A stretch of 64,000 nucleotides of DNA from Escherichia coli. Lineage in GTDB: Bacteria > Pseudomonadota > Gammaproteobacteria > Enterobacterales > Enterobacteriaceae. The first letter of the stretch is position 1, and every line of letters begins with the position of its first letter. The position numbers and the translations under genes were made by a program. Shown here piece after piece: positions 28,061 to 28,183 of the stretch. The DNA lies in NCBI RefSeq assembly GCF_044324875.1, contig NZ_CP172185.1; one strand, given 5' to 3'. Under the pieces are notes generated by a model, which had not been told where the DNA came from, ran no database searches, and worked only from the letters and a program-made list of their open reading frames with translations.

Positions 28061-28183
28061 AATCAATGATCGGAAGCATGCCAAATCGTGATCGATTGTG
28101 ATGCCAAACTGTGATCGGAGATGGATGCCAAATCATGATCGATTCGAATGCCAAACTGCGATCGATTCAGATGCCATTTTGCA
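28061..28183. repeat. tandem degenerate 23-bp direct repeats at the istA-proximal end of the IS21-family element
   Basis: Five units of the form atgccaaa-N-gatcg-N; similar units in opposite orientation at 25545-25625. Confidence 0.7.

Follow-up and report, generated by a model that had tools for sequence, protein, structure and literature searches.

The 64,000-nt stretch of Escherichia coli DNA analysed here (the window) contains an IS21-family element with short, degenerate direct repeats at both of its ends. The question raised by this locus is whether the repeats belong to the element, as binding sites for its transposase, or form an independent array of plasmid iterons or CRISPR-like repeats that merely lies beside it. 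The results described below favour the first reading, and a probability of about 0.9 is assigned to the view that the arrays represent multiple binding sites for IstA at the termini of an IS21-family element of the ISSso4 type.

To establish the extent and regularity of the repeats, the window was scanned for the pattern ATGCCAAANNNNGATCG with up to two mismatches. Five matches were obtained on the plus strand, at 28056, 28078, 28101, 28125 and 28148, four of them exact. The pitch of these istA-proximal ATGCCAAA-N4-GATCG copies was 22−24 bp. On the minus strand, ATGCCAAA-N4-GATCG was matched at 25563−25579 and 25587−25603, with one and two mismatches, respectively, and the remaining ~61 kb of the window gave one stray match with two mismatches. 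The total of eight matches compares with an expected 2.6 and was reached in none of 100 shuffles. Tandem Repeats Finder reported the region 28054−28176 with a period of 23 bp (4.3 copies) and, as the better solution, with a period of 47 bp (2.4 copies, 81% matches). The autocorrelation of the istA-proximal end peaked at a lag of 23, a peak reached in 0/2,000 shuffles, while the other end taken alone was weakly periodic, with 65/2,000 shuffles reaching its autocorrelation. When the two ends were aligned in inverted orientation, the arms 25557−25604 and 28100−28147 were 75% complementary, and several 18-nt arms reached 89%. The direct repeats that the first-pass annotation had reported at both ends, and the inverted orientation in which it had paired those ends, were therefore both borne out.

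The units at both ends run head to tail, are 22−26 bp long and follow the scheme TTTGGCAT-N5-7-CGATCA. The istA-proximal (left) array, defined by Tandem Repeats Finder, motif scan and autocorrelation, occupies 28044−28183 on the minus strand and comprises six units. Numbered from the tip inwards, these are L1 (28158−28183; TGCAAAATGGCAT-CTGAAT-CGATCGC), which includes the TGCA tip, L2 (28135−28157; AGTTTGGCAT-TCGAAT-CGATCAT), L3 (28111−28134; GATTTGGCAT-CCATCTC-CGATCAC), L4 (28088−28110; AGTTTGGCAT-CACAAT-CGATCAC), L5 (28066−28087; GATTTGGCAT-GCTTC-CGATCAT) and the innermost unit L6 (28044−28065; TGATTGGCAT-CCTGC-CAGTCAC), in which AGTCAC stands in place of GATCAC. The istB-proximal (right) array, defined by inverted alignment, motif scan and autocorrelation, occupies 25545−25615 on the plus strand and comprises R1 (25545−25569; TGCGTATTCCGC-TCTATT-CGATCAC), R2 (25570−25593; GGATTGGCAT-CGAAGTC-CGATCAG) and R3 (25594−25615; CGATTCGCAT-CCATT-CGATCAA). 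Both arrays begin exactly at the tips and end in a common CCGGGAA(C)TTAAC motif. Read from the tip, the left closing motif is TCCGGGAATTAAC (28031−28043, minus strand); its inverted-repeat partner, identified by inverted alignment, is the right closing motif CCGGGAACTTAAC (25616−25628, plus strand). TTAAC-like strings, CTTAACGC or CCTAACGC, also close the arrays of ISAs29 and of a Citrobacter relative.

Five units had been counted previously at the istA-proximal end, the first of them from 28061. Five full units are indeed present; however, a sixth, tip-containing unit brings the array to 28044−28183, and in the phase used for that count the first unit starts at 28056, so that its first five bases had been clipped. 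The estimate of about three inverted units at the other end agreed with the three found. The tip-anchored phase is preferred here because both arrays then start at the cleavage site and R1 then has the tip layout of IS408; which of the two half-sites leads would follow from this anchoring. Whichever phase is chosen, the half-site centres are 11−12 bp apart, about one helical turn.

The boundaries of the element itself were examined by comparison of insertions. An ISSso4-type insertion sequence of the IS21 family extends over 25545−28183 on the minus strand (2,639 bp), with 5'-TG...CA-3' tips and the termini TGCGTATTCC...CCATTTTGCA. The same boundaries were found in five independent insertions; the four other contexts, each with a unit of 2,638−2,639 bp, are sbp, the aldo/keto reductase-yeaE region and kgtP (other E. 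coli) and a Shigella sonnei plasmid. The insertion comparison and the empty site placed the two copies of the target-site duplication CATCGTG at 25538−25544 and 28184−28190. The duplication is thus 7 bp here; it was 6−7 bp at the four other sites and 6 bp in a further intact copy (NZ_CP122874.1). Target-site duplications of the IS21 family are 4−8 bp. When the element and one CATCGTG were deleted in silico, an intact IS621 was recovered, with 4 mismatches in 1,354 bp relative to NZ_CP027437.1 (strain 2012C-4221). The numbers of records holding a near-identical full-length copy (≥80% coverage) were 296 for E. coli and 232 for plasmids. With its boundaries set by five insertions, the empty site and hundreds of copies, the element is a genuine IS21-family insertion sequence. 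Its identity to the S. sonnei copy labelled ISSso4 by NCBI is 96.3% over 2,639 bp, and the name used here rests on that label; for the window variant, the NCBI 'ISSso4 family' label is attached to istB only.

An IS621 copy adjoining glpD received the insertion, within its transposase gene. IS621 is an IS110-family element known for bridge-RNA recombination. Its transposase gene is split near codon 45 into pieces at 24681−25544 and 28184−28318 on the minus strand, and the copy runs to about 28600, with its upstream non-coding part intact. The junction between the IS21 element and IS621 was found in 0/5,426 complete E. coli genomes, the best matches beginning at the IS621 side only. Immediately downstream of the IS621 transposase gene, a sub-threshold match to the ES036 (CssrF) sRNA was seen at 24537−24580 on the plus strand (29 bits, gathering score 37.6, E=0.0085). 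This was the sole match in an Rfam scan of 24300−28900, and neither array was matched.

Both genes of the element are on one strand and are separated by 16 bp. The gene istA (26416−27951, minus strand) encodes a DDE transposase of 511 aa that scored 284.7 bits against model NF033546 (cutoff 160) and contains the Pfam domains rve and Mu-transpos_C_2; its start at 27951 is also the start in the NCBI annotation of identical copies. The gene istB (25644−26399, minus strand) encodes an AAA+ helper ATPase of 251 aa that scored 257.8 bits against NF038214 (cutoff 200) and 205.7 bits against PF01695 (IstB_IS21). As the NCBIfam IS21 models were passed, IstA and IstB belong to the IS21 family. IstA matched the sequences of the IS5376 IstA structures 8B4H and 8Q4D at E=6e-14. 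In the phmmer comparison with IS5376 IstA, only residues 76−374 were aligned and the HTH region gave no sequence alignment; with the alignment limited to this catalytic part, the DNA-contacting residues R31, K32, T92 and K95 could not be mapped. In an AlphaFold model of IstA (10 sequences), residues 1−122 were predicted to be helical and were confident, with block means mostly of 77−90. The model as a whole was poor (pTM 0.26), being confident only in this N-terminal helical region and in C-terminal parts. When the model was used in a fold search, the IS5376 IstA chains 8B4H and 8Q4D ranked first (E=4e-9), with low TM-scores for 8B4H (0.19−0.25). Because the model is poor and the TM-scores are low, the case for tandem HTH domains in this IstA rests on family homology.

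The organization of the two ends was then compared with that of IS5376 from Geobacillus stearothermophilus. Cryo-EM and biochemistry of IS5376 showed that the ends of IS21-family elements carry multiple direct repeats (L1−L2 and R1−R2) 23 bp apart, and that each repeat contains two conserved regions ~10 bp apart, where one and the same IstA subunit makes major-groove contacts through its HTH-2 and HTH-1 domains (PMC10122671). In the transpososome, R1 is occupied by the catalytic subunits and R2 by the structural subunits, and the 23-bp repeat spacing favours a negatively supercoiled wrap (PMC10122671). Integration in vitro needs two complete repeats per end (PMC10122671), with which a study of the holo-transpososome agrees; the latter further suggested that multiple repeats may help to hold IstA inactive until IstB arrives (PMC11208146). 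The window element shares with IS5376 the bipartite terminal repeats with boxes about one helical turn apart, the 23-bp spacing, the terminal CA, the IstA and IstB system and a homologous IstA core. It differs in having six and three units rather than two per end and duplications of 6−7 bp rather than 5 bp, and the repeat motifs of the two elements are unrelated in sequence.

Since the units in the window match the published description of IS5376 point by point, a mechanism can be proposed by homology. One IstA monomer would bind each ~23-bp unit through its two N-terminal helix-turn-helix domains, and the four subunits of an IstA tetramer would occupy L1−L2 together with R1−R2. The tetramer would bring the two ends together, negatively supercoiled in a wrap, and cleave 3' of the terminal CA, and integration into target DNA presented by IstB-ATP would then produce the 6−7 bp duplications. 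L3−L6 and R3 would be accessory sites that may promote cooperative loading, make the ends unequal, keep the transposase inactive or occlude transcription of istA. For the window element, we infer IstA binding, its stoichiometry and the role of the inner units from the IS5376 analogy.

To assess whether the half-sites are conserved beyond this element, the units were compared with those of a colinear Salmonella relative (locus L018), the right-end segment of which is 85.2% identical at the DNA level. Half-sites differed at 1/65 positions and spacers at 9/50 (Fisher p=0.002). A per-position logo of the units is partly circular, as the units were chosen by motif pattern, and the orthologue comparison is the fair test. 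From this comparison, the half-site positions of the units appear to be under selective constraint. In a Serratia marcescens relative, the pitch and the GATCG half-site were kept and ATGCGAAA replaced ATGCCAAA in all units.

More distant relatives were chosen on the basis of IstA identity (43−52%) and comprised seven elements, namely those of Aeromonas, Stutzerimonas (its istB assigned by NCBI to the ISPsy14 family), Citrobacter and Cereibacter, together with ISEc12, ISAs29 and IS408. The strongest istA-proximal autocorrelation was at lag 23 in all seven, and each had about 4−5 units at the istA-proximal end and 2−3 at the other. The units themselves were built on other motifs, for example ATTTCGG...ATCCGGCCA and ATTCCGG...GTGAACAC. 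The consistent lag and the unequal ends in 7/7 relatives indicate that multiplicity, pitch and left-right inequality are properties of the clade, of which, judged by sequence, the window element is a typical member.

Several named systems allow a closer comparison. ISSso4 on the S. sonnei virulence plasmid is 2,638 bp compared to 2,639 bp in the window, with the same gene order and tips. Its right end is the same except for one spacer substitution, and L1−L5 are likewise the same except for one spacer substitution. The innermost left unit of that copy is altered (GAATTCCAAT compared to GGATGCCAAT) and has a 1-bp deletion. IS408, ISEc12 and ISAs29 (IstA identity 43−47%) have the tip TGCGTATTCC and the 23-bp pitch in common with the window element. 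IS408 also has the GATCAC half-site, and its tip, TGCGTATTCCGG-CGAACGT-GATCAC, reproduces the spacing of R1 base for base. The first half-site differs from that of the window element, being ATTCCGG in IS408 and ISAs29 and ATAAC in ISEc12. In ISEc12, ISAs29, IS408 and the Citrobacter element, extra inverted units lie between the direct array and istA, in the 120 bp preceding the gene, such as CCGGAATCACTGTTCAC in ISAs29; none was seen in this interval of the window element.

The IS21 prototype of R68.45 and the window element have TG/CA tips and the istA-istB operon in common. The repeats of the prototype are L1−L3 and R1−R2, so that the istA-proximal end is the richer one, as here (Berger & Haas 2001 and Reimmann 1989, as cited in PMC10122671); the repeat count is higher in the window element. 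Phage Mu (L1−L3, R1−R3) and Tn7 (multiple TnsB sites) likewise have several transposase sites per end in unequal numbers, of which the core tetramer shows only a subset (PMC10122671). However, their transposases belong to other families, and their sites are differently spaced and not strictly contiguous. The layout in the window thus agrees with the ends of ISSso4, ISEc12, ISAs29 and IS408. The multiple-terminal-repeat architecture of the IS21 type, as first proposed for this locus, is supported by the element boundaries, by the IstA and IstB models and by the published layout.

The number and position of the left units leave room for a second function. The array fills 28044−28183 and the istA ATG is at 27951; as the array sits between the tip and this ATG, external or tip-proximal transcripts must cross it. 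IstA bound to L2−L6 might therefore act as on an operator, repressing or blocking transcription that enters istA in addition to its role in synapsis. The greater number of units at the istA-proximal end in all relatives examined is consistent with this, as is the proposal that the transposase is autoinhibited by multiple terminal repeats (PMC11208146). On the other hand, a promoter to be regulated was not located, since a consensus scan of 25400−28400 returned no sigma-70-like promoter. An operator role is accordingly considered a possibility, though on the unlikely side.

Tandem copies of IS21 form a junction promoter at their abutted ends. For the window element, the junction of abutted right and left tips was inspected by eye and gave no convincing −35/−10 pair. 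For the leader that separates istA from the left array (27945−28045, minus strand), a stable RNA fold was predicted (−30 kcal/mol, z=−3.4). The fold contains a 10-bp hairpin, GUCUCCAUUG...CAGUGGAGAC, and in addition CUCCGGG of the closing motif is paired with the Shine-Dalgarno sequence CCAGGAG. In five relatives the pairs were kept and no compensatory changes were found. The predicted fold may mask translation of read-through transcripts.

The variation in unit number was considered next, as it bears on whether the inner units have any function. Copies of ATGCCAAA-N4-GATCG number three in a relic in ETEC H10407, four in Yersinia ruckeri, five in the window and in Salmonella, and six in S. marcescens. 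A left-end allele shorter by 47 bp (two units) was found with intact istA and istB and a 6-bp duplication, TCTGGC, in NZ_CP122874.1. The same 47-bp-shorter allele occurs at a different site in the truncated ETEC H10407 relic, beside the eltAB heat-labile toxin genes on a plasmid (NC_013507.1). As the shorter element is intact and has a target duplication, mobility has very probably been retained with the shorter left array, and no fewer than two units can be dispensed with. Gain or loss of two units at once is indicated by the 47-bp period.

These observations could mean that only the outermost two units per end are functional and that L3−L6 and R3 arose as neutral by-products, through slippage or through unequal recombination of tandem copies. 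In addition to the variation from three to six motif copies among close relatives and the presence of the 47-bp-shorter allele in an intact element and at a second site, the 47-bp double-unit period with its 81% identity suggests that two units were duplicated together recently, and the innermost left unit is degenerate in the window (AGTCAC) and damaged in ISSso4. Against this, inner-unit half-sites are better conserved than the spacers across orthologues. Furthermore, the 43−52% IstA relatives retain 4−5 istA-proximal units despite their unrelated motifs, which argues that multiplicity itself is maintained. Neutrality of all the inner units is for these reasons regarded as rather unlikely.

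Shorter derivatives of the element were also observed. In a 215-bp derivative in the Serratia proteamaculans plasmid NZ_MT039220.1, located across the origin of the record, about 118 bp of right-end sequence is joined directly to the outermost 97 bp of the left end, and nothing else of the element is present. As the 6-bp duplication ATGCGC flanks it, this ends-only copy corresponds to a MITE-like internal deletion. No further 215-bp ends-only copies were found in the plasmid collection. Many other plasmids retain only the outer 33−34 bp of one end, in one example (locus L020) adjoining eltA.

The second half-site also creates a cluster of GATC sites. Eight of the 13 GATC sites of the element fall in its two ends, which together span 234 bp, against an expectation of about one (P=1e-5); five are in the left array and three in the right, with a spacing of 22−24 bp. 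Enterobacterial hosts are Dam-positive, and these sites would be Dam-methylated. In IS10 and IS50, transposition is coupled to passage of the replication fork via Dam methylation. The enrichment, the regular spacing and the Dam-positive hosts are thus compatible with end recognition that is sensitive to Dam or SeqA and couples transposition to fork passage. If this were true, methylation or SeqA sequestration would limit transposition or istA expression to a post-replication window. However, IS408 carries GTGATCAC in every unit although its host genus, Burkholderia, to our knowledge lacks Dam, whereas most units of the Aeromonas and ISAs29 relatives lack GATC. Present in IS408 and mostly absent from the other two, GATC has the appearance of a recognition motif that was inherited, not of an adaptation to Dam. 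A literature search found no link between IS21 and Dam methylation; among the papers listed, the two terms met only in a Rhodococcus genome paper, each in passing. A Dam-dependent role is thus judged improbable.

An independent feature beside the insertion sequence can be dismissed almost outright, as the likeness goes no further than the presence of short direct repeats in tandem. The lack of unique spacers between the abutting units, whose only variable parts are linkers of 5−7 bp, excludes a CRISPR-like array, and plasmid iterons are excluded because the array lies inside the element boundaries, moves with the element into chromosomal genes (sbp, yeaE, kgtP) and many plasmid backbones, and has at the other end a related inverted partner, which would be unexpected for iterons or CRISPR alike.

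The arrays are therefore best read as terminal IstA-binding repeats. The multiple-terminal-repeat architecture of the IS21 family is already known, and the case in the window is a correct and ordinary example of it. Annotations of this locus should identify the array as terminal repeats belonging to an IS21-family element of the ISSso4 type and should mark the surrounding IS621 gene as disrupted. For the family, the natural alleles that differ by 47 bp, or two units, provide a convenient test set for the sites beyond the two per end of the solved complex.
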